A stretch of 32,000 nt of DNA from NCBI GenBank assembly GCA_964480775.1, contig CAYZRF010000013.1:25032-57031 (forward strand), read 5' to 3'. Numbering within the stretch: the first letter of the stretch is position 1; each line of letters begins with the position of its first letter. The position numbers were made by a program, and so were the translations under genes. The stretch is from an uncultured Nitrososphaerota archaeon. Its GTDB lineage: Archaea; Korarchaeota; Korarchaeia; Korarchaeales; Korarchaeaceae. Below, one piece after another: positions 2 through 24,308 of this stretch. The notes under the pieces were generated by a model that was not told the DNA's origin, made no database searches, and saw nothing but the letters and a program-made list of their open reading frames with translations.

Positions 2-691
2 GCTTTCCTCCCAATTGGATGCATAGAACCACACGGTCCGCATCTTCCTTTAGGAACAGACTTCTTAATTGCTGAATTCATAGCTAATAAACTGTCTGAG
101 AGAATAGAGGGCTTAGTTCTACCGGTCATCACGTACGGGGTAGTCAGAGGACTTTCAGGATTCCCAGGCGCCATAAAGATATCACCAGTCGCCTTAGAGG
201 AAACAGTTTACGGAATTTTGAGTTCTCTTGGTGATAATGGGATAAAAAGGGTGATAATAGTCAACGGACATGGTTCAGAGCACCATGTTAAAGCCATAAA
301 CAAAGGGATGGATAGAGCATGGTTTGACGGCAAGGTTAGAAGTGCCCTTGTTAACTGGTGGGTATATGCCAGAAAGATCTCTGATGAAATTTTTGGTGCG
401 TCAGGAGATCATGCAGGGACGGCCGAAACCGCTATGATTGTCGCTATGAACGATTATCTAATAAAGGATGGACCTATCAAGGAGGAGGATATCGAGCACC
501 TTAAGTCGGGAATAAGAGCTGTTCCCTGGGGTGGATCTATTCTATTGCATGAAGGGGAGGATATGATAATTCCGAACAAAAAAGAAGCAGAGTTCTTTGT
601 GGAGAAACTCTTAGATCGACTAGAAAGTGAAATTCGAGAAATCTTGAACGGATGGACAGTTCAAACTAGAGCCAAGCTTGAGCGAAAATGA
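2..691 (+). CDS. Creatininase-family metal-dependent amidohydrolase; N-terminus lies outside the window
   Basis: Frame 2 is open from base 2. It translates as AFLPIGCIEPHGPHLPLGTDFLIAEF...VIIVNGHG, which resembles the E-x-H-G-x-H-L-P..D and NGHG metal-site motifs of the creatininase fold. The ORF-track start at 218 is only the first TTG. Specific substrate unknown. Confidence 0.7.
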   Translation, partial: AFLPIGCIEPHGPHLPLGTDFLIAEFIANKLSERIEGLVLPVITYGVVRGLSGFPGAIKISPVALEETVYGILSSLGDNGIKRVIIVNGHGSEHHVKAINKGMDRAWFDGKVRSALVNWWVYARKISDEIFGASGDHAGTAETAMIVAMNDYLIKDGPIKEEDIEHLKSGIRAVPWGGSILLHEGEDMIIPNKKEAEFFVEKLLDRLESEIREILNGWTVQTRAKLERK

Positions 692-753: not shown

Positions 754-1896
754 GTGGCTCACAGTCAGAAAGGAGAGGCAAAGGCCCTAACAATTCAGTC
801 GATATATATGCTGGAAAGTGGGGCACTTTCCACTATACTGCCGCTCTTGATGAAAGAAGAGGGCTTGTCAGTTGGACAAATAGGCATAGTGTACTCTATA
901 GAGCCTATTCTCTTTCAACTAACCAGACTGTTCTTTGGAGCGCTTTCAGACTTTATTGGGAGGAAGCCTTTCTATGTCCTTAATGGCATAGGAAGCTTTC
1001 TTTCGTTCATAGGTTATTACCTTGCAAGGACCCCCATAGGTTTCGCAGCTGGAAGAATACTGAGTGCATTTCAAGGAGCCTGTATGTGGGCTGTGAACAG
1101 AGCATATCTCCTTGAACAAAGAGGCGGGGGTATGAAATCTCTGTTCAAGCTGAGAGCAATCACTGCCATATTTGGATCAATAGGAAACCTCCTTGCTGGC
1201 TTTCTGGTTGCTAGGATATTTTACAAACGCTCCCTGCTAGCCCTAATTCCCTTTAGTGTAGCAACAATACTTCTATCTTTAACGTTACCCGAAACCGTAG
1301 AGAGGAAGCGACCGGATGTCAAGAAAGTCCTTAGAACAATAGATCCCAGAGGGAGGTGCTCAGGATTCCTAGAATTCATGGTCCTGTTCTGCATTGCGGG
1401 ATTCTCGATAGGAATTACTTGGGCATACGTCGTCCCTCTGTTCCTGAAATCCATGGACCTCTCCATTGAAAGAATAGGGGCTCTGTTAAGTCTTCAGTCG
1501 TTAGTCTCAGGCATTACCTTATATTTACTCTCTTCAAAGATAAGCCACAGGAAATTCTTGCTATTATCTGGCGTGTACTCCTTTCTCGGTGTTCTCGCAT
1601 TCGGATTTGCAAACAAATCTACTATCCTTCCACTAAGCTTCGTTCTAGGAACGGCATCTGGCGCAATAGGAGCGGTTCACGAAGCAGTGATTGGAAGAAT
1701 AGCCAGGGAGGGAAGTTATGGAGCAGATATAGGGCTTCTCATGCTAGGACTACATAGCGGGAACACGGTTGCACAAGCAATCTCGGGATTCTTGATCTCG
1801 GTTGCTGGATATCCGTTTCTATTTTGTCTTTCTGCGGTCGGATCACTCCTTTTCTCGATTCTTGCGCATATAAAGCTTTCAAAAAAGAAAAATTAA
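754..1896 (+). CDS. MFS-type transporter
   Basis: 380 aa and hydrophobic throughout (about 10-12 predicted helices). MFS motif-A-like GALSDFIGRKP follows the second helix. GTG start with GAGGA 7 nt upstream and TTATAAA at 718-724. Confidence 0.8.
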   Translation: MAHSQKGEAKALTIQSIYMLESGALSTILPLLMKEEGLSVGQIGIVYSIEPILFQLTRLFFGALSDFIGRKPFYVLNGIGSFLSFIGYYLARTPIGFAAGRILSAFQGACMWAVNRAYLLEQRGGGMKSLFKLRAITAIFGSIGNLLAGFLVARIFYKRSLLALIPFSVATILLSLTLPETVERKRPDVKKVLRTIDPRGRCSGFLEFMVLFCIAGFSIGITWAYVVPLFLKSMDLSIERIGALLSLQSLVSGITLYLLSSKISHRKFLLLSGVYSFLGVLAFGFANKSTILPLSFVLGTASGAIGAVHEAVIGRIAREGSYGADIGLLMLGLHSGNTVAQAISGFLISVAGYPFLFCLSAVGSLLFSILAHIKLSKKKN

Positions 1897-3089
1897 ACTC
1901 GAAAGAGAAGCACAGTTATTGTTCCCGACATGATCGTAATGACAGTTACTGGTATAAGGTATCTGTAAACCTTGAGCATACTTGCGCCAAAGTACTCGCT
2001 TGTCAAAGTGTAGCATGCGTGTAACGGTGAGACGACATAGCCTAATATAGAACAGGTTAGTATAAGTCCCGTTTCCAAAGAACCTATCGGAATAAGGTTG
2101 GCAAGCAGTGGAACTGCAAGAGCTATTGTACCAGTTGGTGTACCCAGCGTAAAACCCAAGATAGATGGTATTAGCACTAGCAACAGAACGCTGGGAATGT
2201 TGCTCCCACCTATTAGGGATGCAATTGTCTTAGTTACACCAGAAGCTTCTACTGTTGATCTGTAGATCATAACTCCAAGCCCTACGAGAATCATCTCTGG
2301 CAAACGAGCTTCTTTGATTGATTTCCTAAATTTTCCATCCTTTAACTGTCCTAAGATCAACAAGAATGAGATTGCTAGCAGAACCCCAACGGTGATTAAC
2401 CATCTTCTTATGACACCAAACACGGCAACTAAAATTATGGGAAACACAGCCTTTGCGAGTTGCTTCTTTGAAAAACTTCCTTCCATCCTTCTTGTAGTTT
2501 TCTCAAATCCCTTAAGAAGCCAAATTACCTGACCAACGAGAATTGAAGTGAGAAAAACGGGAAGCTGAGCTATTATCAGGGGTTTAACATCGACTCCAGC
2601 CAAGTAAGAAGCCAAGAGTAGCGTAGTACCAACGGGATAAACAAAGAAAACAACATGCCTAAACCAGAGGTTGATGAACGTCTTTTCCTCGGCATCTAAT
2701 CCAAGGTCATTACCCACTGCCTCTACAACAGGAGCTGACATCAGGGCCCCTCCTAAAACTGGCAAGAGACCGAATATTGCAGGCACCAGTTCCGTTACTA
2801 ACTTATCACTTGGTAAAGCTTTCCTTAAACCATTCGAAAGCTCCTCTAAGAGACCAGTTACCTTGTATATGGATCCTAATAAAGCGATTAAAGCAACTGC
2901 TGCCGTCAGCTCAAAAGTCTTCCTGTCGAAGAGAGCTTTTATCATGGTTTGAGCCAAGTCTGGTGGCGACATAGATACAAGACCTAAAACAACGGAACCC
3001 GCCAAAAGAGCTAGGCCTATCCCAGCTTTTCTAATCACTAAGATGAAGATCAGCGTTAGTGATGTCAGTAGCCCTATAAGTTCCGACAA
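1893..3089 (-). CDS. Polytopic membrane protein, DUF401-like permease
   Basis: 398 aa and almost entirely hydrophobic. The N-terminus and the GLLPVLGGALMSAPVVEAV segment resemble my memory of the DUF401 family. TTG start at 3089 with an AT-rich box (AAGATATTAAAC on the coding strand) about 35-45 nt upstream. The family assignment is from memory only. Confidence 0.6.
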   Translation of the reverse strand: MSELIGLLTSLTLIFILVIRKAGIGLALLAGSVVLGLVSMSPPDLAQTMIKALFDRKTFELTAAVALIALLGSIYKVTGLLEELSNGLRKALPSDKLVTELVPAIFGLLPVLGGALMSAPVVEAVGNDLGLDAEEKTFINLWFRHVVFFVYPVGTTLLLASYLAGVDVKPLIIAQLPVFLTSILVGQVIWLLKGFEKTTRRMEGSFSKKQLAKAVFPIILVAVFGVIRRWLITVGVLLAISFLLILGQLKDGKFRKSIKEARLPEMILVGLGVMIYRSTVEASGVTKTIASLIGGSNIPSVLLLVLIPSILGFTLGTPTGTIALAVPLLANLIPIGSLETGLILTCSILGYVVSPLHACYTLTSEYFGASMLKVYRYLIPVTVITIMSGTITVLLFRV

Positions 3090-3249
3090 GGACTAACCCA
3101 AACCACATCCGGTTTTCCATATGTTTAATATCTTTACTGAAGAGTGTGTTACTCTGGCTGGTTTACTTCTCTTTTGATAGGTCTTCGAGTAGTTAATGAA
3201 ATGTCATTTTAGCCTCTAAATGGAATTAATTTGATTTCACATCCGAAGG

Positions 3250-4464
3250 CTAATAAAGCAAAAACGCCTTTCTTTCCTCTTTAAATTCATCTTCAGAAGC
3301 TTTTATCTCCTCATATAGGATGAAAGGATCTGTTCTTTCTTCAAGCGCTTTTCTAACCTTATCTGTACCAGCAAGACAATCGAAATAATAACCCTGCGCC
3401 CCTCTAGGTCGCTTTAACCATTCAAACTTATCAGAATGTTCTCTTAAGACCTCACTTAAGAGACAAAGGGCAACTAGAAATGGTCTGAAACTATTTCTAT
3501 CTATTACATGCAGTTGAACGCCTCTGCATTCCTTCCCAGCGTACTTTGAGAAAGTTGGCACAAACCTCACTTCTCTGAAAAGCACTCCATCTAGCTTGAG
3601 TTCACTTAACCTATTTGTCAATTTCCTTCCATCAATCCACGGTGCTCCTATGATCTCAAAGGGTCTTGTTGTCCCTCTTCCTTCAGAGAGATTAGTTCCT
3701 TCTAAGAGAACCATTCCAGGGTAAACTATTGCTGTTTCCAATGTTGGGATGTTTGGGGATGGCATGATCCATGGAAGTCCCGTTTGATCGAACCACATGT
3801 CTCTTTGCCATCCATCCATAGTAACAACCACGAGGTCAGCTCCTATTTCATGCTTCTTGTTGAAAAGTAGTGCTAATTCGCCAACAGTCATTCCATGTCT
3901 TAATGCTATTGGTAACATACCTACAAACGATCTAAACCTTGGATCGAGGACATAACCTTCAACAGTCACTCCATTGATAGGATTAGGTCTGTCTAAAACA
4001 ATGAAAAGCTTGTTTAGCCTTGATGCAGCCGCCATACTTAGAGCCATGGTCCATATGTAGGTGTAGACCCTAGTACCAACATCTTGAATGTCAAATAGTA
4101 GTGCTTCAACCTCTTCTAAACTTTCTGTTAATGGGGCTCTCGCTTCTGCTGCTAAAATAGAGTCCACAACGTATTCTGGACCCTCTGCATGACCTGCTGG
4201 TCTATAAAGGCTTTTTATCGGAACTCCTGTATCTTCATCAAATTCATCCTCTACGTATTCACCTGCCTGTGCAGACCCCCAAAAACCGTGTTCTGGTGCA
4301 AAAATTGCGACTAAGTCAATGTTTCCTTTCCGCACAAGGAGATTCTTCAGGTGAATGAGTCTGGAGTTAACTGCCGTGTAGTTTGTGATGAGACCAACCT
4401 TCATTCCCTCGATCAGGTTTAGCTCTTTCCGAAAAAGAACTTCTAACCCTGACTTAACCGTCAT
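3250..4464 (-). CDS. namZ: DUF1343 family protein, NamZ(YbbC)-like exo-beta-N-acetylmuramidase
   Basis: Conserved DUF1343 blocks are present along the full length: VGLITN, FAPEHGF.G.AQAGE, FDIQDVGTR.YTYI, LDRPNP, LRHGMT.GELA, GLPW.MPSPN.PT, EGTN.SEGRGTT.PFE, FTPTFSK. I chose the start at ATG 4464 (MTVKSG...) because GGAGG lies 9 nt upstream. The longest ORF would start at 4512. Confidence 0.8.
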   Translation of the reverse strand: MTVKSGLEVLFRKELNLIEGMKVGLITNYTAVNSRLIHLKNLLVRKGNIDLVAIFAPEHGFWGSAQAGEYVEDEFDEDTGVPIKSLYRPAGHAEGPEYVVDSILAAEARAPLTESLEEVEALLFDIQDVGTRVYTYIWTMALSMAAASRLNKLFIVLDRPNPINGVTVEGYVLDPRFRSFVGMLPIALRHGMTVGELALLFNKKHEIGADLVVVTMDGWQRDMWFDQTGLPWIMPSPNIPTLETAIVYPGMVLLEGTNLSEGRGTTRPFEIIGAPWIDGRKLTNRLSELKLDGVLFREVRFVPTFSKYAGKECRGVQLHVIDRNSFRPFLVALCLLSEVLREHSDKFEWLKRPRGAQGYYFDCLAGTDKVRKALEERTDPFILYEEIKASEDEFKEERKAFLLY

Positions 4465-6097
4465 CTCCCCAAACCTCCGGTATGATCCCATGGCCTCTTT
4501 GAAACGTCTCATCTAAGGAGACTGGAAGTCTCCCTTTTGGTTTTGCTTTTCCAATTAGAACGTCAATCAGGGCTTTCTGCATTGGCTCATGATAATCATA
4601 TATTGCTAAATGATTTTCTACCCAAGGGAACGAAAGTATATCATAAGGAGTTCCAAGCGAGATTATTATGAGGCATTTACCCTTCTCGCTGGCAAGAGTG
4701 TGCAGTTCCCTTACTAATTCGTGCTCTTTGGAGTACCTTAGAACCTCTCTCGTGCATACGATGATAGAATCAGCCCACGAAATGTGTTTGGTGGATTCTT
4801 CTAATATCTCATCAGCTCTTTCTTCTTGGAAATAAATCTCTCTAACATCAAATCCTTCTGATAACATCTTTTCACCCAATGTTGAGGTACTTTCGCCCGT
4901 TTCAACGAGCTTTCTCACTCTCTCTGGACATATAACCAAAACCTTGAGCGAGCCTTTCTTTAGGGGAAGACAATCTTCTCCAAGCTTAACTAGAGTAACT
5001 GATTCCTTACACACCTTTCTTTCAAGATCGAAGAGTCTTTCAAAGTCAGGCTCTATTCTTTGCAATACCAAAGCTTTTTTCTTCAGGTCCATAACCCTCT
5101 GAAGGGCTTCCTTCACCCTTTCCTTAGAAAGAAGCCCCTTCTTAACAGCCTCTATAACGAAGTCGATCGCATTCATTTGTTCTTCAAAATCTCTGCAGAT
5201 TAGAGCCATGTCTTCTCCTGCTTTCAGGGTGAGCAGGCATGTTTCAGCCAACGAATATCTTTTGCTGACTGCACCCATCAGGAGATCGTCTGATAAAATA
5301 GCTCCACGAAAACCTAGCTCATACCTTAGAGTTCCTTCGATTATCTTTTTTGATAGAGTAGCTGGCATTTCTGGATCGATTTCTGGTACTACTACGTGAG
5401 AAGGCATTATAGCGTCCACACCTTCCTTTATAGCTTCCACAAAAGGAGCGAATTCCCTGTTCCACATGACATCTAGGGAGATGTCCAAGACAGGTAGGTC
5501 AATATGTGGATCTATTGAGGCAGCCCCTATGCCAGGAAAATGCTTGGCAACAGCCATGACTCCGGATTCTCGCAGTCCAGCTATCATTGCTCTTCCCATC
5601 TTTGACACAAGAGCAGGGTCATCACCAAAAGATCTAACACCTATTGAAGGATTTGTTTTATCAAGTATTATGTCCACGACTGGCGCTAGATTTATGTTGA
5701 CTCCGAGCCATCTTAGTTGCTCTCCAATAGCCCTACCAGTTGAATAAGCCAATTCTATAGAACTAGTTGCCCCTAAAGCCATATTTCCTGGAAAAACAGC
5801 AAAATCTTTCCTTACCCTAGCAACTAGGCCCCCTTCTTGATCAATTGAGACGAGAAGGGGTGTACCAGTTAGCTCGAGCGAGAGTTCATTGGCTTCAGAT
5901 ATTAACTTCCGTAGTTGTTCCTTTGTATCTACATTTCTTGAGAATATTATTATTCCTCCAGGTCTCAGCTCTTCCAAAAGGTCCTTTAACCCTTCTTCCA
6001 TTCTTTTTCCGTCAAAACCGAGCATAAAGAGCTGTCTAACCCTGTCCTCAAGAGACATTTTCGAAACAGATTTTATAGGGTCCCAAGCCTGGCTCAT
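4454..6097 (-). CDS. nagZ: Glycoside hydrolase family 3 beta-N-acetylhexosaminidase, two-domain NagZ type
   Basis: GH3 N-domain motifs are present (LFMLGFDG, IDQEGG.V.R, GVN.NLAPV.D, KHFPGIG, ILSDDL.M). An extra C-terminal domain of about 200 aa matches the Bacillus two-domain NagZ layout. GAGGT lies 9 nt upstream of the ATG. No signal peptide. Confidence 0.85.
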   Translation of the reverse strand: MSQAWDPIKSVSKMSLEDRVRQLFMLGFDGKRMEEGLKDLLEELRPGGIIIFSRNVDTKEQLRKLISEANELSLELTGTPLLVSIDQEGGLVARVRKDFAVFPGNMALGATSSIELAYSTGRAIGEQLRWLGVNINLAPVVDIILDKTNPSIGVRSFGDDPALVSKMGRAMIAGLRESGVMAVAKHFPGIGAASIDPHIDLPVLDISLDVMWNREFAPFVEAIKEGVDAIMPSHVVVPEIDPEMPATLSKKIIEGTLRYELGFRGAILSDDLLMGAVSKRYSLAETCLLTLKAGEDMALICRDFEEQMNAIDFVIEAVKKGLLSKERVKEALQRVMDLKKKALVLQRIEPDFERLFDLERKVCKESVTLVKLGEDCLPLKKGSLKVLVICPERVRKLVETGESTSTLGEKMLSEGFDVREIYFQEERADEILEESTKHISWADSIIVCTREVLRYSKEHELVRELHTLASEKGKCLIIISLGTPYDILSFPWVENHLAIYDYHEPMQKALIDVLIGKAKPKGRLPVSLDETFQRGHGIIPEVWGDDG

Positions 6098-6103
6098 TAT
6101 GAA

Positions 6104-7210
6104 CTACCTCTTTACTATGGCACCTACAACGGCATTATGGAATAAGGGCCTAAACTTGAGAAGCATTTCGTTTTCTCTCGTCGGATGTACTCTGTTTGTT
6201 AAAAGGACAACCAATAGCTTCAATTTTGGATCAATCCATATTGATGTACCTGTAAATCCTGTGTGACCATATGCCTTCGTAGAAAGCAAGTCCCCGCTTG
6301 AAGTTACTCCCCTTGAGTTGATCAGCCAACCAAGACCCCTTCTATACCCCATACCTTTGGTGTGATTCTTTGTCATCTTCTTTACTGTTGGAGGGCTGAG
6401 GACCCTTACATTATTGTACTTCCCTAAATTTAGGAACATTTGGGCAAATATCGCAGCATCAAAAGCTTTTGAGAAAAGACCTGCATGACCCGCAACTCCT
6501 CCAAGAGCGTAAGCTCTTTCGTCATGTACTTCTCCAATTAGGACCCTGTCTCTCCACTTGCAGAATTCAGTGGCAGCTATTCTCTCTTTAAGATGTTCTG
6601 GGGGATTAAACATCGTGTCTTCCATTCCCAAGGGAAGAAATATGTTCTCTCGTGAGAAAACATCCAAGGGTTTTCCACTGACCTCCTTTACAATCTCTCC
6701 CAAAAGTATATAGCCCAAATCACTGTAGATAACCCTCTTTCCAGGTTCACATAGCTGCTCGGAATCTAAAATCGCCTTGATTATTCCCTCCTTTCCAAGC
6801 TTGTGTACTGGCTTAAACGGAGGAAGACCAGAAGTGTGGGTTAGCAGGTGCCAAAGAGTGACTTCCTTGTAGCGCCACTTTATCTCAGGGAAATAGTCAG
6901 CAACGCGTTCTTTAAGGGTTAAAACACCCTTTTCAACCAAAACCATTATAGAAGTAGCAGTCGCCATGACTTTTGTCAAAGATGCCATATCAAATATCGT
7001 GTTCTTTGTCATCTCCCTTGTAAATGGCGTCTTGACCGCATAACCGAGTGCTTCATGAGCTACTATAACCCCCTTCCTCGCAATTAGATACACAGCTCCA
7101 GGAAAAGCTTCATTGTTTATCCATTTAGCCGTTAACTCTCTTAGATGATTAAGTCTAGACGGATCCATGCCTACGTCTTCAGGGGAGCCATATTCTAGCT
7201 TCATTATCAT
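6104..7210 (-). CDS. Beta-lactamase-fold serine hydrolase; AmiE(YbbE)-like candidate MurNAc-L-alanine amidase
   Basis: Carries SxxK (SLTK), Y-S-D (YSDLGY) and H-T-G (GHTGFTG) motifs in the order typical of the class-C beta-lactamase/esterase fold. It ends 6 nt upstream of the nagZ start. The functional call rests on synteny with the B. subtilis amiE-nagZ-ybbC order. No signal peptide. Confidence 0.75.
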   Translation of the reverse strand: MIMKLEYGSPEDVGMDPSRLNHLRELTAKWINNEAFPGAVYLIARKGVIVAHEALGYAVKTPFTREMTKNTIFDMASLTKVMATATSIMVLVEKGVLTLKERVADYFPEIKWRYKEVTLWHLLTHTSGLPPFKPVHKLGKEGIIKAILDSEQLCEPGKRVIYSDLGYILLGEIVKEVSGKPLDVFSRENIFLPLGMEDTMFNPPEHLKERIAATEFCKWRDRVLIGEVHDERAYALGGVAGHAGLFSKAFDAAIFAQMFLNLGKYNNVRVLSPPTVKKMTKNHTKGMGYRRGLGWLINSRGVTSSGDLLSTKAYGHTGFTGTSIWIDPKLKLLVVLLTNRVHPTRENEMLLKFRPLFHNAVVGAIVKR

Positions 7211-7232
7211 CTTTCATTCCATTCGGGGGAAA

Positions 7233-7240
7233 CTATTAAG
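7233..7240. promoter_or_regulatory. Single TATA-like element (CTATTAAG) in a 55-bp divergent intergenic region
   Basis: This is the only AT-rich box between the minus-strand ATG at 7210 and the plus-strand ATG at 7266. Its centre lies about 26 nt from the first and about 30 nt from the second. Confidence 0.3.
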
Positions 7241-7265
7241 TGATTCCCGATTGTCTGGTCACGGC

Positions 7266-8033
7266 ATGATCGACAGAGTGCTACTTGACGTCGACGGAGT
7301 TTTGATTGAGAATCCATACAAAAAGCTGATATTTCCAGAAGTAGCTCGGAAGCTCGTTGAAGAAGAGAAAGTCCAGGTATTTGTCGATATGATGATGAAA
7401 GAGAGCATTAGGAGAACAAAGGAGGGTAAATTAGTTAGTGCATATGATTGGGATGACATAGTTAAGACTGTATGTAAGATGTTTGGCGTTAATAGAAGCA
7501 TTTCTGTAGTAGATGTTGTTATAGAGGTTTGCTCATCTTTCTCTGAAATAAAGGCCTACCCAGATGTTATACCGACCCTCATAGATCTTAGGAATAGGGG
7601 AATCGAGTTAATTGCGCTAACGAACGGGTTCTATGAAATAGTAACCCCGGTCTTGAGAAAAACTGGGGTGCTCGAGCTCCTAGATGGTTTAGTAACTCCG
7701 GACAAGGTTGGTGCGGCAAAACCATCTCCAGAGATCTTCCTAACTGCTATAAAGGGAGCAATTAAGCCTATATTCGTTGGAGACAACGTTTCAGTGGATA
7801 TATGCGGTGCAAATTCTGCTGGAATATCATCAGTTTTACTATGGAGAGAACTCTCAAGAGAGCTAAGTGTGAACCCTAGGGAAAGGGCAGTTAGAGCCTA
7901 TCTCCTTGGGTTAATCCGAGAAAAGCTAATAAATGAAAGTACTTCTTTTCTAGCACCTTTGAACGGCTGTGTTCCAGATTTTTTAATCAAAAACCTCAAA
8001 GAACTCGTTAAAATCGTTGAAATGGTGAATTAA
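7266..8033 (+). CDS. HAD-superfamily hydrolase (phosphatase-like)
   Basis: HAD motifs are present in order: LLDVDGVL (DxD), ALTNG, AAKPSPEIF, FVGDNVSVDICGA. The start is set at ATG 7266 (MIDRVLLDVDG). The longer ORF from 7167 overlaps the upstream divergent gene. Confidence 0.75.
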   Translation: MIDRVLLDVDGVLIENPYKKLIFPEVARKLVEEEKVQVFVDMMMKESIRRTKEGKLVSAYDWDDIVKTVCKMFGVNRSISVVDVVIEVCSSFSEIKAYPDVIPTLIDLRNRGIELIALTNGFYEIVTPVLRKTGVLELLDGLVTPDKVGAAKPSPEIFLTAIKGAIKPIFVGDNVSVDICGANSAGISSVLLWRELSRELSVNPRERAVRAYLLGLIREKLINESTSFLAPLNGCVPDFLIKNLKELVKIVEMVN

Positions 8034-8038
8034 TTCAG

Positions 8039-8227
8039 TTATGGGAATTTCTTTGACGCTTGCTCTCCACCTGAGCCCCAGTTTTCTTTAGGTATATCGT
8101 GAATGATCACTGTTACAGCAGATGCTTTCACTCCAACTTCCTCAAAGGCTTTTGTTATCCCTTTTATTACTTTCTCCTTTAAGGAAGCATCTCTACCAGC
8201 CCACCAGAACACATGAACTACAGGCAT
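8039..8227 (-). CDS. 4-oxalocrotonate tautomerase family protein
   Basis: 62 aa starting MP (catalytic Pro1). It has the typical 4-OT layout ...V....GR....K..........GV....V.V.I.....NWG.GGE. Confidence 0.8.
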   Translation of the reverse strand: MPVVHVFWWAGRDASLKEKVIKGITKAFEEVGVKASAVTVIIHDIPKENWGSGGEQASKKFP

Positions 8228-8247
8228 AAGGACCCCACCATAACCTC

Positions 8248-8272
8248 TTACAATTCTTTATTAATCTTGTAA
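8248..8272. promoter_or_regulatory. Inverted repeat TTACAA-N13-TTGTAA bracketing a TATA-like box
   Basis: TTACAA at 8248-8253 and TTGTAA at 8267-8272. The spacer contains TTTATTAAT, which lies about 30 nt upstream of the tautomerase start at 8227 on the minus strand. Confidence 0.3.
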
Positions 8273-8423
8273 CAAAACATCCGATGCTCAAGGCCAAAGT
8301 TCTAAGAAGGTAATTCACAATTTTGATAATAATGGTTCGTAAGCCTTGTTCCTTTAAGAAAAAACTAAGTTGCTAAGAAAAGAGGCTCATTTTTTATTTT
8401 CAATGCCATCTCTATGTGGAAAA

Positions 8424-9380
8424 ATGGGGTTACTAGCTGGCATAGATGGTGGAGGAAGTAAGACATTAGCTCTCGTCGCAGATGAGAATGGGTTTATTGT
8501 TGGGAAGGGATGGTCAGGATCTTCAAATCCCAATTTAATCGGGATTGATAGTTCTGTCAAAAACCTGAAATTAGCTTTAGTAAATGCTTTAAGTTCAAGA
8601 GAATTAGAGAAAATTAGTATCGCTGTGTTTGGAGTCGCTGGTTCTGAAACCAAAAAAGAACTTTCAGAAAAACTAGCTGAATCCTTAGAATTCGTAGATG
8701 AAGTAGTGGTTGTAAATGACTCCTTCGTTTGCCTAGCTGCTGGAACTCTCGGAAAACCAGGTGTTGTAGTCGTTGCTGGTACAGGCTCAATAACTCTTGC
8801 AGTTGATGATGAAGACAAGGTTTTCAGGGCGGGGGGCTGGGGCTATCTGCTAGAAGACGAAGGTAGCGGTTTACAGCTTGGAAAAGAAGCAGTTATGGAG
8901 ACATTAAGGTTTTTAGAGGGAAGAGCTTCTTCCAGTAAGCTTGTAGATGCAGTTCTTAAGAAATTAAAGGCTAAAGAGGTAAACGATCTGTTATCCGCCA
9001 TATATGGCAGCGACAATCCTGTCACTACGATTGCGTCCCTTGCGCCCCTTGTAGTCCAACTTGCAAATATGGGTGATCCTGCGGCTATGAGAATAGTTGA
9101 TAAGGCAACAGATGGACTAGTTTCTTGTGTAACATCAGTGATATCTCGCTCGTCATTCAGCTCCAAGCCCATACCTGTAATACTTAGTGGTGGAGTTTTC
9201 AAAGGGAAGGGAATATACTTGAAATTGCTGAAGTCAAAGCTAAACAAATTGGCCCCGGAGACTGATCCAAAACTCCTAGAATTGGAGCCCGCTATCGGAG
9301 CACTGATCTTAGCTTTTAAAAAGGCTGGACTTTTTAACTGCCGAGTTCTCGGCAACTTAATCGAATCCTATCAAAGATAG
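8424..9380 (+). CDS. BadF/BadG/BcrA/BcrD-type ATPase; GlcNAc/MurNAc kinase-like (MurK-like)
   Basis: ASKHA-fold motifs GIDGGGSKT, VAGTGS and GGWGYLLEDEGSG are present. It ends 12 nt before murQ. The start is uncertain (TTG 8370, ATG 8403 or ATG 8424). I chose 8424 (MGLLAGIDGGG) because ATTTTTTATTTT at 8389-8400 lies about 30 nt upstream. Confidence 0.8.
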   Translation: MGLLAGIDGGGSKTLALVADENGFIVGKGWSGSSNPNLIGIDSSVKNLKLALVNALSSRELEKISIAVFGVAGSETKKELSEKLAESLEFVDEVVVVNDSFVCLAAGTLGKPGVVVVAGTGSITLAVDDEDKVFRAGGWGYLLEDEGSGLQLGKEAVMETLRFLEGRASSSKLVDAVLKKLKAKEVNDLLSAIYGSDNPVTTIASLAPLVVQLANMGDPAAMRIVDKATDGLVSCVTSVISRSSFSSKPIPVILSGGVFKGKGIYLKLLKSKLNKLAPETDPKLLELEPAIGALILAFKKAGLFNCRVLGNLIESYQR

Positions 9381-9392
9381 GAGGGTATCATT

Positions 9393-10250
9393 ATGACTAA
9401 CAAAAAGCATGACTCTGAGATCAAAAAAGAACTTGAACGCTTAATTACAGAGAAAAGACACCCAAAGACTGTAAATATCGATGAACTCAGCACGATAGAG
9501 ATTCTCAAGGTCATAAACGAGGAGGACAAGAAGGTTGCGTATGCTGTTGAGAAAGTTCTCCCTGAGGTGGCAAAGGCTGTTGAGGAATACGTGAGAGCAC
9601 TGAGGTCTGGGGGGAGAGTCTTCTACGTCGGTGCTGGAACCAGTGGCAGGCTAGGGGTCATTGACGCTGCAGAGCTAATACCCACCTTTGGAATGGAGGA
9701 GGGAAGGGTTCAGGCCATCATTGCAGGAGGACCTGAGGCTATGTTCAGACCAAAAGAGGGCGCCGAAGACGATGAGCTAGTTGGAGAGGAGGAGATGGTA
9801 AAGAGAGGAGTGAGCGAGAAGGACTTTGTTATAGGTCTGTCTGCAAGTGGAAGAACCCCCTTTGTGATAGGAGCCCTTAGGAAGGCAAGAGAGCTTGGAG
9901 CAAAAACGGCTATAATCTCAGTAAATCCAGAATGTAAGGCTGGAAAACATGCTGACATCAAGATAATTCCGATGGTTGGGGAGGAGGTTATTACAGGATC
10001 TACCAGGATGAAAGCGGGCACAGCTGAAAAGATGCTGCTAACGATGATGAGCACGGCTGCAATGATAAGGCTTGGGAGGGTTAAAAGCAATCTGATGATT
10101 AACCTCCTACCCCTTAGTAAGAAGTTGAGAGAGCGGGCAAAGAGGATCGTAATGGAAGCTACTGGTGTAGGATACGAGCAAGCTACCAAAACACTGGAAA
10201 AAACAGGATATGACGTCGAAAAGGCCATAGAACTGATAAAATCCAACTGA
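9393..10250 (+). CDS. murQ: N-acetylmuramic acid 6-phosphate etherase
   Basis: 285-aa SIS-domain protein with MurQ-typical blocks: ID.L.T.EIL..IN.ED..VA.AV, GAGTSGRLG..DA.E..PTF, G.SASGRTP, ITGSTRMKAGTA.K. The C-terminal helical tail is present. GGAGGG lies 8 nt upstream of the ATG. Confidence 0.9.
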   Translation: MTNKKHDSEIKKELERLITEKRHPKTVNIDELSTIEILKVINEEDKKVAYAVEKVLPEVAKAVEEYVRALRSGGRVFYVGAGTSGRLGVIDAAELIPTFGMEEGRVQAIIAGGPEAMFRPKEGAEDDELVGEEEMVKRGVSEKDFVIGLSASGRTPFVIGALRKARELGAKTAIISVNPECKAGKHADIKIIPMVGEEVITGSTRMKAGTAEKMLLTMMSTAAMIRLGRVKSNLMINLLPLSKKLRERAKRIVMEATGVGYEQATKTLEKTGYDVEKAIELIKSN

Positions 10251-10341: not shown

Positions 10342-11427
10342 ATGTCAGAACTACCAAAGGGTCTGATACCAAGAGTTGAAGTAAAACTCGAATTAGGGGG
10401 AAAAGCTATACTCAATGATAGAATAGCAGCTGTCTTGGAGGGAATTGAGAAGTACGGATCTCTTCTTGCAGCCTCCAGGCGATCTGGTATCCCCTACTCA
10501 AGAGCTTGGGATGGCATAGCTAAGCTTGAGAGAATTCTAGGTGACAAGGTCATCGAGCCCAAGAAGGGTGGGAGAAAGGGAGGAGGAGCAAAACTAACCC
10601 CCCTAGGAAAAGCAATTTTGGAAGAATACCGCAGAATCAGGGCGAGAGTTGATAGGTGCGTCGAAGGCATTGCAAAGGGTATTTCAGCCTCAAAAAGCCT
10701 TCCAGATCTAGCCATAGCAGGAAGCAACGATCACGTTCTAGAAATCTTGGTAGGGTTGCTGAGAGAGGAATACCCCGACATAGATGTTGAGATAGCTTGG
10801 ATAGGATCTGCTGGAGGTCTTGCCTCTTTGATGTTGGAAGAAGCTGATATAGCGGGCGTTCATCTGCTTGACTTGGCCACGGGAACCTACAACCTGCCTT
10901 ATCTTGAAAAATACTGGTTGAATGGAAGAGCTAGGGTAATTAGAGGATACAAGAGAGAAATAGGTCTTATAAGCAGGCCAGATAACAAAGTTGAGGACAT
11001 CAACCTTCTTTTTGATGGTAATCTGAAGTTCATTAACCGAAATTTGGGATCAGGAACTAGAGTTCTGCTGGAGTCCATCTTAACAAAGAAAGCTAAAGAG
11101 CGTGGAATTGATCCAAATGCCCTAAAAAAGAGGATAAAGGGTTTCGAGAGGGAGGTTAAAACCCATTTCGAGGTGGTCAGAGCTGTTGCTAGAGGAGAGG
11201 CTGATGTCGGGGTGGCTCTAAGGTATGCTGCTGAGATCTACGGCCTAAGCTTTACCCCTCTTGTTTGGGAGGAGTATGATTTCGTCATATTGGAGTCGAG
11301 GGTGGCAAAGAGTTCTGTAGAAGCCTTTCTCTCCGTATTAGGCTCTGAAGAGTTTATAAGGTCTCTAGAGAAGATTTCTGGATATCAAATTCCTCCTGAC
11401 ATGGGAATGGTTATTTACAAGCCCTAG
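10342..11427 (+). CDS. Transcriptional regulator: ModE-type N-terminal HTH fused to a periplasmic-binding-protein-like domain
   Basis: The N-terminus (RIAAVLEGIEKYGSLLAASRRSGIPYSRAWDGIAKLE...GGRKGGGAKLTPLGKAIL) matches the ModE N-domain pattern. The remaining roughly 240 aa look like a type-2 PBP fold. Ligand unknown. Confidence 0.75.
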   Translation: MSELPKGLIPRVEVKLELGGKAILNDRIAAVLEGIEKYGSLLAASRRSGIPYSRAWDGIAKLERILGDKVIEPKKGGRKGGGAKLTPLGKAILEEYRRIRARVDRCVEGIAKGISASKSLPDLAIAGSNDHVLEILVGLLREEYPDIDVEIAWIGSAGGLASLMLEEADIAGVHLLDLATGTYNLPYLEKYWLNGRARVIRGYKREIGLISRPDNKVEDINLLFDGNLKFINRNLGSGTRVLLESILTKKAKERGIDPNALKKRIKGFEREVKTHFEVVRAVARGEADVGVALRYAAEIYGLSFTPLVWEEYDFVILESRVAKSSVEAFLSVLGSEEFIRSLEKISGYQIPPDMGMVIYKP

Positions 11428-11642: not shown

Positions 11643-13418
11643 ATGTGCGGAATTTTCGGGTACATAGGTTTCAGAAAACTTGGTCCAATCATACTTGAAG
11701 GGCTAAAGAGGCTTGAGTATAGGGGTTATGATTCTGTTGGAGTTGCTTTCATAAGTTCGGGTCTCCATATAATTAAGGACGCTGGTAAGATTGATGAGAT
11801 AAGCCGAAAGTTCAATCTTGCAGGAATAGAGGGAAGGCTGGGCATATCCCACACGCGTTGGGCAACTCATGGAGCAGTTACCAGAGCTAACGCGCACCCT
11901 CATATATCATGCAATGGGAAGATAGCCGTCGTCCACAATGGAATCATTGAGAACTACATTGACCTGAAAAATGAGCTCATCTCGCTAAGTCATAAGTTCA
12001 GGAGCGAGACCGATACCGAAGTAATTCCTCATCTCATAGAGGAGTTTTACAAAAAGACTGGCGATCCCTTAGAGGCCGTATTCAGGGCTGTTTCTAGGCT
12101 GGAAGGAAGCTTTGCTTTCTTAATAATATTCGAGGATCATCCTGATAAGATCTTCGCGGTTCGTTACAAGTCACCTCTCGTCATAGGGTTAGGTAGCGGA
12201 GAAAATTTCGTTGCCAGCGACGTTCCTGCTTTCCTGAAGTACACAAACAGGGTAATGTTCCCAGACGACCCAGAGGTTGCTGTCATAGGCAAAGATTCAG
12301 TCGAAATTTTCAACGCTCTAACGAAAGAGAAGGTGAGTAAAGAAGTAGTTACGGTTCCATGGAGCGTGGAGGACGCTGAGAAAGGAGGATATCCCCACTT
12401 TATGATGAAGGAGATTATGGAGCAATGCTACACCATAACGAGAGTTCTTGGACAAGACGACAGGATTAGAGAGGCATCTAAACTCATCAAGGAGGCCGAG
12501 AATGTCTTTCTAGTAGCTGCAGGCACTAGCTACCACGCATGTCTCGCTGCAAACTATTGGTTTGCGGAAATAGCTGGTGTCGATGCTAAAACCATCCTTG
12601 CCTCAGAATTCCCCTATATTGCAAATCTGGTCGACGACAAAAGCCTAGTCATAGCTGTGTCCCAGAGCGGTGAGACAGCTGATGTACTTGAGAGCGTGAG
12701 ATTGGCAAAGGAAAGGGGATCTAAAGTCTTAGGCATCGTAAATGTGGTAGGCTCAAGCCTCATGAGGATTAGCGATGCCTTCCTGACGATTAACGCTGGA
12801 CCAGAGATCTGTGTGCTAGCAACCAAGAGCTACACGTCTCAACTAGCCATCCTATACCTTCTAGTCAATGATCTCGTTGGAAGACTTGAAGAGGCAAAAA
12901 AGGAGATAAAGAGAGCTGAGACCTTAGTTGCGCAAATGCTTGAGAGCGGAGCTCTTTTATACGAGGTTAGGAGGATAGCAGAATACCTCTCTGACTTTGA
13001 ACACTTGTTCCTGATTGGCAGGGGTATAAGTTATGCTACTTCGCTCGAAGGTGCCCTCAAGATAAAAGAGGTATCATATATTCATGCTGAGGGCTTTGCA
13101 GGCGGAGAATTAAAGCATGGAACCCTTGCTCTGATCGAAGAAGGCACTCCATGCATAGCTATTGTGCCAGAGGACGAGACTAAAGATCAGATCCTGGGAA
13201 ATGCCATGGAGATCAAGGCCAGAGGCGGTTACATCATAGGGTTGTCTCATGAGGAACACGAGGTTTTTGATGAGCTCATCAGAACCCCTTCAGAAACTTC
13301 CCTCTCTCCGATAGTTATGATAGTTCCCCTGCAGCTTCTGGCCTACTATCTTGCCCTAGAGAGGGGTTGTGATGTGGACCAGCCAAGGAATCTTGCGAAG
13401 TCTGTAACTGTCTTGTGA
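11643..13418 (+). CDS. glmS: Glutamine--fructose-6-phosphate aminotransferase (isomerizing)
   Basis: Starts MCGIFGY (Cys2 nucleophile of an Ntn amidotransferase). Two SIS domains are present (SQSGETADV, GFAGGELKHG), and the C-terminus is LAKSVTV. 591 aa. Confidence 0.95.
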   Translation: MCGIFGYIGFRKLGPIILEGLKRLEYRGYDSVGVAFISSGLHIIKDAGKIDEISRKFNLAGIEGRLGISHTRWATHGAVTRANAHPHISCNGKIAVVHNGIIENYIDLKNELISLSHKFRSETDTEVIPHLIEEFYKKTGDPLEAVFRAVSRLEGSFAFLIIFEDHPDKIFAVRYKSPLVIGLGSGENFVASDVPAFLKYTNRVMFPDDPEVAVIGKDSVEIFNALTKEKVSKEVVTVPWSVEDAEKGGYPHFMMKEIMEQCYTITRVLGQDDRIREASKLIKEAENVFLVAAGTSYHACLAANYWFAEIAGVDAKTILASEFPYIANLVDDKSLVIAVSQSGETADVLESVRLAKERGSKVLGIVNVVGSSLMRISDAFLTINAGPEICVLATKSYTSQLAILYLLVNDLVGRLEEAKKEIKRAETLVAQMLESGALLYEVRRIAEYLSDFEHLFLIGRGISYATSLEGALKIKEVSYIHAEGFAGGELKHGTLALIEEGTPCIAIVPEDETKDQILGNAMEIKARGGYIIGLSHEEHEVFDELIRTPSETSLSPIVMIVPLQLLAYYLALERGCDVDQPRNLAKSVTVL

Positions 13419-13429
13419 TTTTGGTGGTG

Positions 13430-13924
13430 ATGCCTGAGTTGGGCTTCCAGATTAGAAGAATGAGAGAAAACGACATAGACGACGTGGTAAAGGTCTATTT
13501 GGATTGCTTCAAGGGAATGAGGGATCCCGAGGTTGTTGAAAGGTGGATAAGGTGTAACTTCAATGCATATCCAAGGATGCAGTACTTCGTTGCAGAAATG
13601 GATGGCAAGGTAGTTGGTTACATCCTATGGGTTGAAATAGGAGGGTTCAGGAAAGAGGCAGTCCTAGAGCTAGAGCAAATAGGTGTACTTAGAGATTACA
13701 GGGGACAGGGAATAGGAAGCAAACTCATTATCAAGTCGCTTGAGGAAATGAAGAAATACCTAATAGAAAGGGGCTCTAAGCTCAAGCTAGTCGAAGTTAC
13801 CACAGGAACAAGCAATCAAGCACAGAAACTCTACATGAAAACCCTGAACGCTAAGCCAGAGTGCTTGATAAAGGATCTGTTTAGAGGAGACGAACTCATA
13901 ATGATAGCTAGGTTCAAGGACTAG
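13430..13924 (+). CDS. GNAT-family N-acetyltransferase
   Basis: Acetyl-CoA-binding motif-A-like segment IGVLRDYRGQGIGSKLI. Candidate starts are GTG 13415 (GTGA overlap with the glmS stop) and ATG 13430. Acceptor substrate unknown. Confidence 0.8.
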   Translation: MPELGFQIRRMRENDIDDVVKVYLDCFKGMRDPEVVERWIRCNFNAYPRMQYFVAEMDGKVVGYILWVEIGGFRKEAVLELEQIGVLRDYRGQGIGSKLIIKSLEEMKKYLIERGSKLKLVEVTTGTSNQAQKLYMKTLNAKPECLIKDLFRGDELIMIARFKD

Positions 13925-14983: not shown

Positions 14984-15797
14984 TTAGATTTTGACCTTTC
15001 TTAACAGTTGAGCATTAAGTACAACGATTATGGTGCTTGCAGCCATTGCAAGAGCTCCCCACTCCGGCCTAAGTGTTATTCCTAATGGAATGAAGAGACC
15101 AGCAGCTGCCGGGATTGCAAGAGCGTTGTAACCAGTGGCCCAGATTAAGTTCTCCTGCATCTTTTTCATCGTTGCCTCACTCAACTTTATGAGCCTAACG
15201 ATATCTCTAGGATCGTTCTTTACCAAAACCACATCAGCAGATTCTACTGCAACGTCAGTTCCTGCACCTATTGCTATCCCAATGTTTGCTCTTACGAGAG
15301 CTGGAGCGTCGTTTATGCCATCTCCTACCATGGCTACCAAGCTCCCATCTGCCTGAAGCTCCTCTATCTTCTTCGACTTATCTCCTGGAAGGACCTCTGC
15401 AAAGAATCTGTCGAGGCCAAGCTGTTCAGCTACATAGCTCGCGGTCTGTTATCTCCTGTCAGCATGATCACCTTTATGCCCATTTCCCTAAGAGTTGCGA
15501 TAGCTTCCCTAGATTCCTCCCTTATCAGATCTGCAAGGCCTATTATTCCCTCCAACTTATTTCCAGAAGCTACGAAAACTAAGCTTTTCCCTTGAGATGC
15601 CAACCTCTCAACGTCTGCCTCCCAATTGTCCTGAGGTGTCTCTCTCCAGGGTTCCTTGAGTCAAAGGTGGATAATCCCTTCGATGAATCCAAACTAGAGG
15701 AGGCCAGAAAAATGATCATTTGGGCTTTAGAGAAGATAAGAAAAGAAACCTCCGAAAACACATGAGGGAATAACTGAGCTGAGAACTTTGTGATCAA
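14984..15797 (-). pseudogene. copA: Remnant (C-terminal third) of a heavy-metal P1B-type ATPase, CopA-like, with frame disruptions
   Basis: The intact tail has MVGDGINDAPAL...AIGAGTDVA.ESADVVL plus the last two TM helices. Upstream, LVFVASGNKLEGIIGLADLIREESREAIATLREMGIKVIMLTGDN is in a different frame, with the shift near 15443-15450 (TAG in one frame, TAA in the other). There is a further frame change near 15600-15660 and a faint SEHP-region similarity up to about 15790. No DKTGT, CPC or HMA-encoding sequence follows. Confidence 0.75.
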
Positions 15798-22394: not shown

Positions 22395-22571
22395 GCTGAT
22401 ATCTATAGCTAAAGCTAATTAGATAAGATTTGACTAGAAATAGCATTTCTTCCGTTCAATCCTTATTTGCTTGACAAACATCGTTCATTAATCCTTTTCC
22501 ACAACTTTTCCCGACTCAAAGCCGTTTTCAAAATTTTTTAGAAAAAAGGAGGATGAAAGCAGGGGAGCCTG

Positions 22572-24209: not shown

Positions 24210-24308
24210 TATGCCAAAAACTTGAAAATTGGAAGGGTTGAGAAAACAGCGTCTATCAATTTCTTTTTTACTCTAAATGTTAAAAGCAATTGGGAAGCAA
24301 GAAGCGCA

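Follow-up and report, generated by a model that had tools for sequence, protein, structure and literature searches.

A conserved bacterial-type gene cluster predicted to serve the use of murein fragments in a Korarchaeota-related archaeon

We analysed 32,000 nucleotides (nt) of contig CAYZRF010000013.1 (the whole stretch is hereafter the window), in which nine intact genes at positions 754–10250 form a cluster of the kind used by bacteria for the breakdown of murein fragments and their amino sugar N-acetylmuramic acid (MurNAc). With a probability that we put at about 0.72, the window belongs to a Korarchaeota-related archaeon (GTDB phylum Thermoproteota) carrying an anciently acquired and vertically maintained bacterial-type pathway, by which it would use murein fragments from neighbouring bacteria. 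Systems of this kind are known, but the host is unexpected; activity is predicted from sequence. An earlier note on this DNA had listed seven of the genes, five enzymes and two permeases, and had read them as a pathway for feeding on bacterial cell-wall debris. All seven are present where it placed them, with strong profile matches, although an HAD hydrolase and a 62-residue tautomerase inside the interval had been overlooked; the proposed pathway itself, with its predicted activity, is supported by a complete, conserved gene set in an archaeal host. Profile searches were judged by the Pfam and NCBIfam/TIGRFAM cutoffs, and structural comparisons were made against PDB sequences.

The etherase MurQ (9393–10250, plus strand) scores above two equivalog cutoffs, TIGR00274 (320 bits versus 302) and NF003915 (370.7 bits versus 168), with a match covering residues 13–284, and aligns end to end with solved MurQ structures (PDB 4s12, E = 3e-83; 1nri, E = 6e-74). 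Its motifs IDAAE and EGAEDD pair with LDASE and EGAEDD/EGAEDN of these two structures, and residues E94 and E125 are invariant across 53 archaeal-clade sequences. We take the catalytic glutamates of MurQ to be those numbered Glu83 and Glu114 in Escherichia coli, within D-A-x-E and E-G-A-E-D motifs. The MurQ assignment of the earlier note is upheld by the equivalog score, the retention of both catalytic glutamate motifs and the alignment with solved MurQ; the note had also asked whether this SIS-domain protein might fall outside the MurQ clade, and it was placed inside an archaeal clade nested among bacterial MurQ. These features suggest an enzyme that would cleave MurNAc-6-phosphate (MurNAc-6-P) to N-acetylglucosamine-6-phosphate (GlcNAc-6-P) and D-lactate.

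Two further enzymes of the set are assigned by both profiles and structures. The homologue of the exo-beta-N-acetylmuramidase NamZ (GH171/DUF1343; 3250–4464, minus strand) has its true start at M17 of the longest open reading frame (ORF), which gives a protein of 404 amino acids identical to database protein P0179. Both of its domains exceed Pfam gathering thresholds (NamZ_N, 263 bits versus 26.9, E = 1.6e-78; NamZ_C, 179 bits versus 25, E = 1.5e-52), and it matches the Bacteroides DUF1343 structure BF0379 (PDB 4k05, E = 2e-73). Of 24 homologues, 23 keep the glutamate of its PEHG motif (E58) and all keep the arginine of EGRGTT (R263); from domain offsets, we infer that these two residues correspond to the putative catalytic Glu92 and the C-domain Arg279 proposed for Bacillus subtilis NamZ (PMC8054146). 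Characterized family members are exo-muramidases, according to PMC8054146 and bioRxiv 10.1101/2021.12.02.470905. The two-domain GH3 beta-N-acetylglucosaminidase of the NagZ type (4454–6097, minus strand; 547 amino acids; N-terminal domain E = 1.4e-87) lies above the NagZ equivalog cutoff (NF003740, 222 bits versus 207). Its top 25 PDB matches are GH3 N-acetylglucosaminidases, hexosaminidases or unnamed GH3 entries, led by 6k5j (E = 3e-92) and including B. subtilis YbbD/NagZ (3bmx, E = 2e-63); a beta-glucoside phosphorylase and two xylosidases come after these, with far weaker E-values. In the alignment with 6k5j, KHFPGIGAASIDPH pairs with KHFPGHGDTGEDSH, and a KHFPG...D-x-H dyad motif is present, the motif of the NagZ Asp-His dyad being KHFPG-x-G-x4-D-x-H.

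The third predicted murein hydrolase, a serine hydrolase of the beta-lactamase fold (6104–7210, minus strand; 368 amino acids), contains the motifs S-L-T-K (SxxK), Y-S-D (Yx[ND]) and H-T-G ([HK]TG) in its translation, and PF00144 (E = 8.6e-63) spans residues 33–348. The best of its 42 NCBIfam matches is PBP4B (NF002968, 211.6 bits), the next being AmpH (75 bits). Its PDB neighbours are esterases and D-amino-acid amidases or D-stereospecific peptidases, including archaeal Pab87 (2qmi); we know of no solved AmiE structure for comparison. The hydrolase is AmiE-like by best family match and gene context, short of an established equivalog. The enzyme identities given earlier hold up on profile and PDB comparison, if less firmly for this hydrolase.

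The sugar kinase encoded directly upstream of murQ (~8403–9380, plus strand) starts at an ATG at 8403 (325 amino acids) or at 8424 (318 amino acids). It is a clear member of the BadF/BadG/BcrA/BcrD family (PF01869, 134 bits versus 31.5, E = 1e-38) without equivalog assignment, lying under the NagK cutoff (113 bits versus 370). Its PDB matches are led by the Sulfolobus tokodaii hexokinase 2e2n (E = 3e-39), with the MurNAc/N-acetylglucosamine (GlcNAc) kinase 8zo3 in second place (E = 3e-33), and include Tannerella forsythia MurK (E = 2e-8); 8oqw and 8ow9 are also among them and, like 8zo3, are presumably tied to MurK-type routes independent of the phosphotransferase system (PTS). Adjacency to murQ recurs in archaeal loci L046–L052, and the position immediately upstream of murQ in archaeal relatives and in the Clostridia loci L002–L006, to whose kinases the protein is ~31% identical. 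Of the earlier description of this kinase as MurK-like, the BadF/BadG family and the adjacency to murQ hold, but similarity specific to MurK does not exceed that to hexokinase. We regard it as a candidate MurNAc/GlcNAc kinase.

Neither a signal peptide nor an N-terminal hydrophobic stretch was found in NamZ, the GH3 protein or the AmiE-like protein. The maximum 12-residue Kyte–Doolittle mean at the N-terminus of NamZ is 1.23, compared with a median of 2.8 in NamZ homologues longer than 425 amino acids; a hydrophobic N-terminal segment occurs in 82% of these longer homologues, with lipobox-like signals in named bacterial examples. All three proteins are secreted in B. subtilis (PMC8054146), secretion being a trait of B. 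subtilis NamZ and not of the NamZ family. Unlike those counterparts, the window's NamZ, NagZ and AmiE-like proteins are predicted to be cytoplasmic and, because they have no signal peptides, fragments would have to be imported and dismantled in the cytoplasm.

The proposed pathway would begin with the import of small pieces of murein (GlcNAc-MurNAc, either bare or bearing peptide, or short stretches of glycan), most likely through the DUF401 permease described below and possibly through the major facilitator superfamily (MFS) permease. In the cytoplasm, going by orthology, NagZ would take off the non-reducing GlcNAc, the AmiE/PBP4B-like hydrolase would strip the stem peptide from MurNAc and NamZ would free MurNAc. 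The BadF/BadG kinase would then phosphorylate MurNAc, and probably GlcNAc too, at C6, and MurQ would turn MurNAc-6-P into GlcNAc-6-P plus D-lactate. From there, GlcNAc-6-P could pass into catabolism, through a deacetylase and a deaminase encoded elsewhere, or into the synthesis of UDP-GlcNAc, an anabolic route at which GlmS, a GNAT protein and an Arch_GlmM-like mutase in the window weakly hint. A conserved set that would convert murein fragments and MurNAc to GlcNAc-6-P, in a host without murein of its own, suggests that debris from bacterial cell walls serves such archaea as food.

The cluster is shared with Korarchaeal relatives. Five related contigs of 22–73 kb each, from independent assemblies (L033, L034, L042/L043 and L044/L045), have the same gene order: DUF401-NamZ-GH3-AmiE on one side and HAD-4-oxalocrotonate tautomerase-kinase-MurQ-HTH/PBP-GlmS-GNAT-UDG on the other, the GH3 gene being missing from L034 alone. 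Amino acid identity to the window is 67–97% and is similar for cluster and flank genes (79–92% for the AmiE-like protein). Relative synonymous codon usage (RSCU) of the cluster correlates with that of the flanks at r = 0.87, compared with 0.93 in a flank-versus-flank control, and GC content at third codon positions (GC3) of the NamZ, GH3 and kinase genes is 0.35–0.37 versus 0.40–0.53 in most flank genes. The parallel divergence of cluster and flank genes, together with flank-like codon usage, fits vertical inheritance after an old acquisition.

Gene layout and upstream elements were also compared with these relatives. On the minus strand, amiE is the first gene of an amiE-nagZ-namZ operon, with a gap of 6 nt between amiE and the GH3 gene, an overlap of 11 nt between the 3' end of the GH3 gene and the start of namZ and a spacer of 160 nt between namZ and the DUF401 gene. 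On the plus strand, 12 nt separate the kinase stop from murQ, and a GGAGG site lies 8 nt upstream of murQ. Between the divergent amiE operon and HAD gene, the promoter region (7211–7265) contains the TATA-like core GGAAACTATTAAGTG ~30 nt upstream of the HAD ATG, which is kept in five Korarchaeal relatives while the surrounding bases vary, and another conserved TATA-like element, CAGTAAAGATATTAAACA, is found upstream of the DUF401 gene. Conserved TATA-like boxes precede the start codons of lead genes by ~30 nt, and GGAGG or GAGGT sites precede internal genes, which agrees with the earlier observation that the expression signals look archaeal. Expression would proceed from archaeal-type TATA promoters in two main units, amiE-nagZ-namZ(-DUF401) and kinase-murQ, with the HAD and tautomerase genes in between. 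The spacer between the tautomerase and kinase genes is poorly conserved and has a 300-nt insertion in L033 and L044. An operator motif shared across three intergenic regions was considered and rejected, as the TATA-like cores alone are conserved.

Flank genes and labelled homologues both point to an archaeal host, which we consider highly probable. The flanking UDG passes the Arch_udg equivalog (272 bits versus 250), and all named proteins among the best 120 GlmS homologues are archaeal (Thermoproteota, Aenigmarchaeota, Bathyarchaeia, Nanoarchaeia and Thaumarchaeota). Cluster mates at 90% identity of UDG, of a 95-residue hypothetical protein (hyp95) and of the DUF917 and CARDB proteins were deposited as 'Candidatus Korarchaeota archaeon' or 'Thermoproteota archaeon'. 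MurQ matches at 91% and 90% identity and a NamZ match at 80% are likewise labelled Korarchaeota/Thermoproteota, and the 90%-identity cluster of MurQ carries no names. Among GTDB representatives, the nearest locus is that of 'Thermoproteota archaeon B8_G17' from the Guaymas Basin, and a scan of genome contigs yielded 31 bacterial loci and a single short archaeal one (L001). Within the window, AGA and AGG account for ~90% of arginine codons, and ATA for half of the isoleucine codons. The flanks in L038–L045 hold metabolic, toxin–antitoxin and transporter genes alone, and no Rfam family reached the gathering threshold in L033, L034 or L038. The archaeal host claimed in the earlier note is supported by labelled mates of four flank genes at at least 90% identity and by GlmS and UDG of archaeal type; of the taxonomic check that it proposed, the part based on a ribosomal or 16S marker found none in the window, and labelled homologues and archaeal flank genes gave strong indirect evidence instead.

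The archaeal distribution of MurQ extends beyond the Korarchaeal group. Named sequences among the best 91 MurQ matches are all archaeal, the first bacterial name, a Clostridium, appearing at 56% identity. In a neighbour-joining (NJ) tree of 38 named MurQ sequences, the 17 with archaeal labels form one clade (bootstrap 181/200, or 191/200 without Brockarchaeota) that includes the Korarchaeal group, Bathyarchaeota, Thermoprotei/Thermoproteales, Thermofilum, archaeon GB-1867-005 and Brockarchaeota and that is nested among bacterial MurQ, beside Clostridia/Bacillota. Because this clade spans several lineages, the transfer appears to be old and shared. The horizontal acquisition proposed earlier is therefore retained as to its bacterial origin but not as a recent or private event, and the per-gene trees and codon comparison suggested with it put MurQ next to Clostridia/Bacillota, find flank-like codon usage and single out no donor for NamZ. 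Korarchaeal NamZ groups near sequences from Acidobacteriota/Aminicenantes.

Gene neighbourhoods were also compared in these other archaea. In Bathyarchaeota B24 (L047), the NamZ and kinase-MurQ genes have a thermosome subunit gene (844 bits versus 400) at a distance of ~5 kb and adjoin an archaeal-type four-subunit pyruvate:ferredoxin oxidoreductase. A 422-kb contig (L046) carries MurQ-NamZ, GH3-AmiE, AnmK and a BadF/G kinase, and another record places its MurQ protein (P0068) on an 843-kb contig named archaeon GB-1867-005. The AnmK of L046 (14885–16084) is full and bona fide (NF007148, 491 bits versus 387), and some archaea may also use 1,6-anhydro-muropeptides shed by Gram-negative bacteria. 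Metagenome loci L050, L051 and L052, with MurQ 57–64% identical to that of the window, have the order AmiE-NamZ-kinase-MurQ. In bacterial loci, MurQ neighbours a kinase, AmiE, GH3 or NamZ in piecemeal fashion. We tentatively propose, at slightly worse than even odds, that MurNAc/muropeptide catabolism was acquired once, early, by TACK/Thermoproteota archaea and kept in Korarchaeia, Bathyarchaeia, Thermoprotei, relatives of Thermofilum and Brockarchaeia.

The remaining genes of the cluster encode two permeases, the HAD hydrolase and the tautomerase. The DUF401/TIGR00529 (AF0261-type) multi-pass membrane protein (1893–3089, minus strand; PF04165, E = 7e-48; TIGR00529, 197 bits) adjoins NamZ in L033, L034, L042, L044 and L045 at 73–81% identity and is the sole membrane protein conserved with the cluster. 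The MFS permease (754–1896, plus strand; 380 amino acids; PF07690, E = 2e-29), convergent with the DUF401 gene, gave no match to AmpG or to a specific NCBIfam family, is missing from L034 and L042 and is represented by a 160-residue fragment alone in L044 and L045. It was rejected as an AmpG-type muropeptide permease on both grounds, and we regard it as peripheral, possibly an importer of a muropeptide or amino sugar; of the two permeases counted in the earlier set, DUF401 is therefore a conserved member and the MFS protein is not. In Thermofilum, an oligopeptide-type ABC transporter is found near MurQ instead of DUF401. The HAD-IA family hydrolase (7266–8033, plus strand; 255 amino acids from M34 of the longest ORF; PF00702, E = 7e-20) has homologues of 255–258 amino acids at the same position in L033, L034, L042 and L044 (67–79% identity). 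It shows a faint match alone to the MurNAc-6-P phosphatase MupP (NF009696, 24 bits versus 359) and is presumed to be a sugar-phosphate phosphatase. Between the HAD and kinase genes, on the minus strand, lies the gene for a 4-oxalocrotonate tautomerase family protein (8039–8227; 62 amino acids) with proline at position 2 (MP... N-terminus), 92–95% identical in the same four relatives; its matches to TIGR00013 (44.5 bits) and NF001966 (E = 1e-12) are both below cutoff.

Directly after murQ, the window encodes a protein with a ModE-type HTH and a PBP_like domain (10342–11427, plus strand; PF12727, E = 2.7e-53; TIGR00637, 74 bits), whose gene is next after murQ in all Korarchaeal relatives, at 76–93% identity. 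It is possibly the regulator of the cluster, its membership being uncertain. A PBP_like (PF12727) protein stands directly after murQ in two distant archaeal lineages, as a ModE-type HTH fusion in the Korarchaeal group and as a MoeA fusion in Bathyarchaeota B24 (L047, 11038–14286), which could reflect an ancestral gene order or the recruitment of a molybdate/tungstate-type regulator to the cluster. GlmS (11643–13418, plus strand), with a GATase and two SIS domains, and the GNAT acetyltransferase whose gene overlaps that of GlmS (13415–13924, plus strand) follow, in synteny with L033, L034, L042 and L044; these neighbours may link the cluster to amino-sugar anabolism. We rejected the GNAT protein as a GNA1-like glucosamine-6-phosphate (GlcN-6-P) acetyltransferase, since its PDB matches are generic N-acetyltransferases with E >= 1e-5. 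The best family of the mutase encoded in the window is Arch_GlmM (391 bits), under the equivalog cutoff of 439.

Several observations weigh against a murein-degrading pathway in an archaeon. The AmiE-like hydrolase falls well under the PBP4B equivalog cutoff (211.6 versus 385 bits), and the kinase is at least as near to the broad-specificity archaeal hexokinase of S. tokodaii as to MurK. The DUF401 permease, our candidate for the likeliest importer of the cluster, is a guess, and its linkage to MurQ is confined to the Korarchaeal group. The 32-kb window holds no NagA, NagB/GlmD, D-lactate dehydrogenase, AnmK or secreted muramidase, in line with the earlier statement on nagA and nagB, neither of which appeared in profile searches of the window ORFs. 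Because AnmK is missing from these 32 kb, the Korarchaeal version would handle reducing-end MurNAc and not anhydro-muropeptides; because a secreted muramidase is missing too, fragments would come from bacterial turnover or from the lysozymes of other organisms. No tRNA, ribosomal protein gene or Rfam family at the gathering threshold was found in the window, and in close relatives no universal archaeal marker (rRNA, ribosomal proteins, RNA polymerase or thermosome) lies within 10 kb of the cluster. Lastly, the trees are NJ trees only, made from sequences chosen for their similarity to the query, and the NamZ tree does not support archaeal monophyly (bootstrap 0/200 and 20/200), so that no donor can be named.

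Two of the alternatives concern the host and the age of the cluster. The lack of rRNA, tRNA and ribosomal protein genes in the window and in the relatives examined, and the presence of bacterial homologues of all cluster enzymes at 30–56% identity, would suit a bacterial contig mis-binned into archaeal metagenome-assembled genomes (MAGs), the cluster then serving ordinary self-recycling of murein. We consider this very improbable, because the same cluster and flanks occur in independent assemblies labelled Korarchaeota/Thermoproteota (Guaymas RLG/QMVU records, GCA_024281195.1, GCA_964618805.1 and a third-party annotation (TPA) MAG), the flanking GlmS has archaeal names alone in its best 120 homologues and UDG passes an archaeal equivalog. 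Moreover, named members of the MurQ clade are all archaeal, one being linked to a thermosome gene and one lying on the 843-kb contig named archaeon GB-1867-005, and the window contains no murein synthesis gene and no ORF matching the PTS (MurP) or RpiR (MurR) families. Slightly less probable still is a recent and possibly non-functional horizontal insertion private to this genome: the GC3 of NamZ, GH3 and kinase is somewhat lower than in most flank genes, as such an event might leave it, but the reading is largely refuted by the synteny in at least five related contigs, where the cluster diverges in step with its flanks, and by an archaeal MurQ clade spanning several classes. All ORFs are also intact, and the RSCU correlation of 0.87 with the flanks speaks against it as well.

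The other two alternatives accept an archaeal cluster and differ on its use. Rather than energy catabolism, the enzymes could serve anabolic salvage, with MurNAc and GlcNAc converted through GlcNAc-6-P, in a bypass of GlmS, to UDP-GlcNAc for the N-glycans and surface glycoproteins of the archaeon. GlmS with the overlapping GNAT gene follows murQ in every Korarchaeal relative, L033, L034 and L035 encode a GT4 glycosyltransferase a few genes beyond these, the Arch_GlmM-like mutase (391 bits) is in the window, and NagA and NagB are found neither in the window nor within 10 kb of the cluster in relatives. However, the GNAT protein has no similarity to GlcN-6-P acetyltransferases among solved structures, the mutase is sub-cutoff with no nucleotidyltransferase nearby, the adjacency of GlmS may be incidental and NagA/NagB may be encoded elsewhere in the genome; on balance we judge this use unlikely, if by no means negligible. 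Doubtful to a greater degree is a substrate other than murein, such as chitin or chitooligosaccharides, a different amino sugar (3-O-substituted or a lactyl ether) of archaeal or other glycans, or D-amino-acid peptides, in which case the MurNAc annotations would mislead. The proximity of the kinase to a broad-specificity archaeal hexokinase, the sub-cutoff score of the AmiE-like protein, whose PDB relatives are esterases and D-stereospecific peptidases including Pab87, and the fact that activities of the archaeal homologues are predictions from sequence would all allow it. Against it, MurQ passes a strict equivalog cutoff with both catalytic glutamate motifs kept, NamZ keeps the conserved glutamate and arginine of a family whose characterized members are exo-muramidases, and the related archaeal cluster on L046 also has AnmK, an enzyme specific for 1,6-anhydro-MurNAc. 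The co-occurrence of four or five murein-specific families would be hard to explain otherwise, and we continue to prefer the use of murein fragments from neighbouring bacteria.

Further features of the surroundings were noted. On the minus strand, 14987–15630 contains a remnant of a P-type (E1-E2) ATPase that corresponds to residues 543–758 of the 758-residue homologue in L033, in two frames and at 77–96% identity, and the GT4 glycosyltransferase and a 399-residue gene that come next after the ATPase in L033 are missing from the window; together, these point to a deletion or pseudogene at 14987–15630. At the other end, a creatininase-family gene (8–691, plus strand) seems incomplete: the listed ORF starts at 218 and matches profile positions 93–194 alone, and a tblastn match to the 254-residue homologue of L042 reaches back to base 8. 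Either the window edge truncates this gene or it is disrupted. Relatives have one or two intact creatininase-family copies (242–254 amino acids) at the same place. Positions 20514–25142 contain a KamA-family radical-SAM aminomutase of 626 amino acids with an N-terminal extension of ~200 residues (TIGR00238, 342 bits; best equivalog glutamate 2,3-aminomutase, sub-cutoff), followed by a 545-residue Amidohydro_3 protein (NF006560, 195 bits) and a xylose-isomerase-like TIM-barrel protein. In L042 and L044, Amidohydro_3 (587–590 amino acids) and GATase_4 genes lie just past the DUF401/creatininase side, with an M20 peptidase also in L044/L045. The KamA, Amidohydro_3, GATase_4 and M20 genes may handle stem peptides or D-amino acids. 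In two relatives of the right flank (L038, 6388–6585; L039, 2405–2602), a 65-residue cold-shock-domain (CSD) protein is encoded among PIN/MazE toxin–antitoxin genes; CSD proteins are uncommon in hyperthermophilic archaea.

Murein is among the largest pools of bacterial necromass in sediments, and its consumers in anoxic, hot settings are poorly known. A conserved archaeal MurQ/NamZ/NagZ/AmiE cluster would give Korarchaeota, Bathyarchaeia and related archaea a definite means of living off bacterial walls, and would document the old transfer of a whole catabolic module from a bacterium to an archaeon. If a single early acquisition by TACK/Thermoproteota archaea is true, abundant uncultured archaea of sediments and hydrothermal sites would be direct consumers of bacterial murein necromass, through an all-cytoplasmic pathway with lineage-specific importers and, in some lineages, with AnmK for the anhydro-muropeptides of living Gram-negative bacteria. 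The published distribution of NamZ covers bacterial phyla only (PMC8054146), and a survey of 101 Korarchaeota genomes makes no mention of muramic acid, cell wall or amino-sugar/GlcNAc use (PMC12787533). Within the open-access literature searched, no paper dealt with MurQ or the catabolism of MurNAc in archaea, consistent with the earlier claim that no archaeal MurNAc pathway has been characterized. In NCBI automatic annotation, these archaeal proteins already bear the names MurQ and NamZ, so that the genes are in plain view but undiscussed.

Among known systems, archaeal scavenging of an external amino-sugar polymer has a precedent in the chitin/GlcNAc catabolism of Thermococcus, which uses the Dac deacetylase, GlmA, an ADP-dependent GlcN kinase and GlmD. 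The enzyme families there are entirely different, with no MurNAc step, and none of those genes was identified in the window. Reportedly, PTS-independent MurNAc routes are provided by MurK-MurQ in Clostridium acetobutylicum and by MurT-MurK-MurQ with NamZ1/NamZ2 in T. forsythia, and like these the window has a permease and an ATP-dependent kinase of the BadF/BadG type directly upstream of murQ. T. forsythia scavenges murein from other bacteria and uses the MurNAc for its own wall, whereas the archaeon has no such wall to build; the transporter family also differs, and the window kinase, ~31% identical to clostridial neighbours, scores slightly better against the S. tokodaii hexokinase. In B. 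subtilis, the operon murQ-murR-murP-amiE-nagZ-namZ(ybbC) serves murein recycling and MurNAc catabolism (PMC8054146). The window likewise clusters MurQ, an AmiE-type amidase, a two-domain GH3 NagZ (YbbD, 3bmx, E = 2e-63) and NamZ/GH171, which would act in the same order on the non-reducing glycan end. It differs in having a BadF/BadG kinase in place of phosphorylation by the PTS transporter MurP, in lacking the RpiR-type regulator MurR, in its extra HAD, tautomerase and DUF401 genes, in the absence of signal peptides from proteins that are secreted in B. subtilis and in a host that makes no murein. Anaerobic ciliates have laterally acquired pbp4b, NamZ, murQ and anmK, read by the authors as serving the digestion of bacterial walls (PMC13198582). 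Their hosts are eukaryotic and their genes scattered, and the case there is likewise one of sequence evidence, but they share with the archaeon described here a bacterial MurNAc catabolic set acquired by a host without murein.

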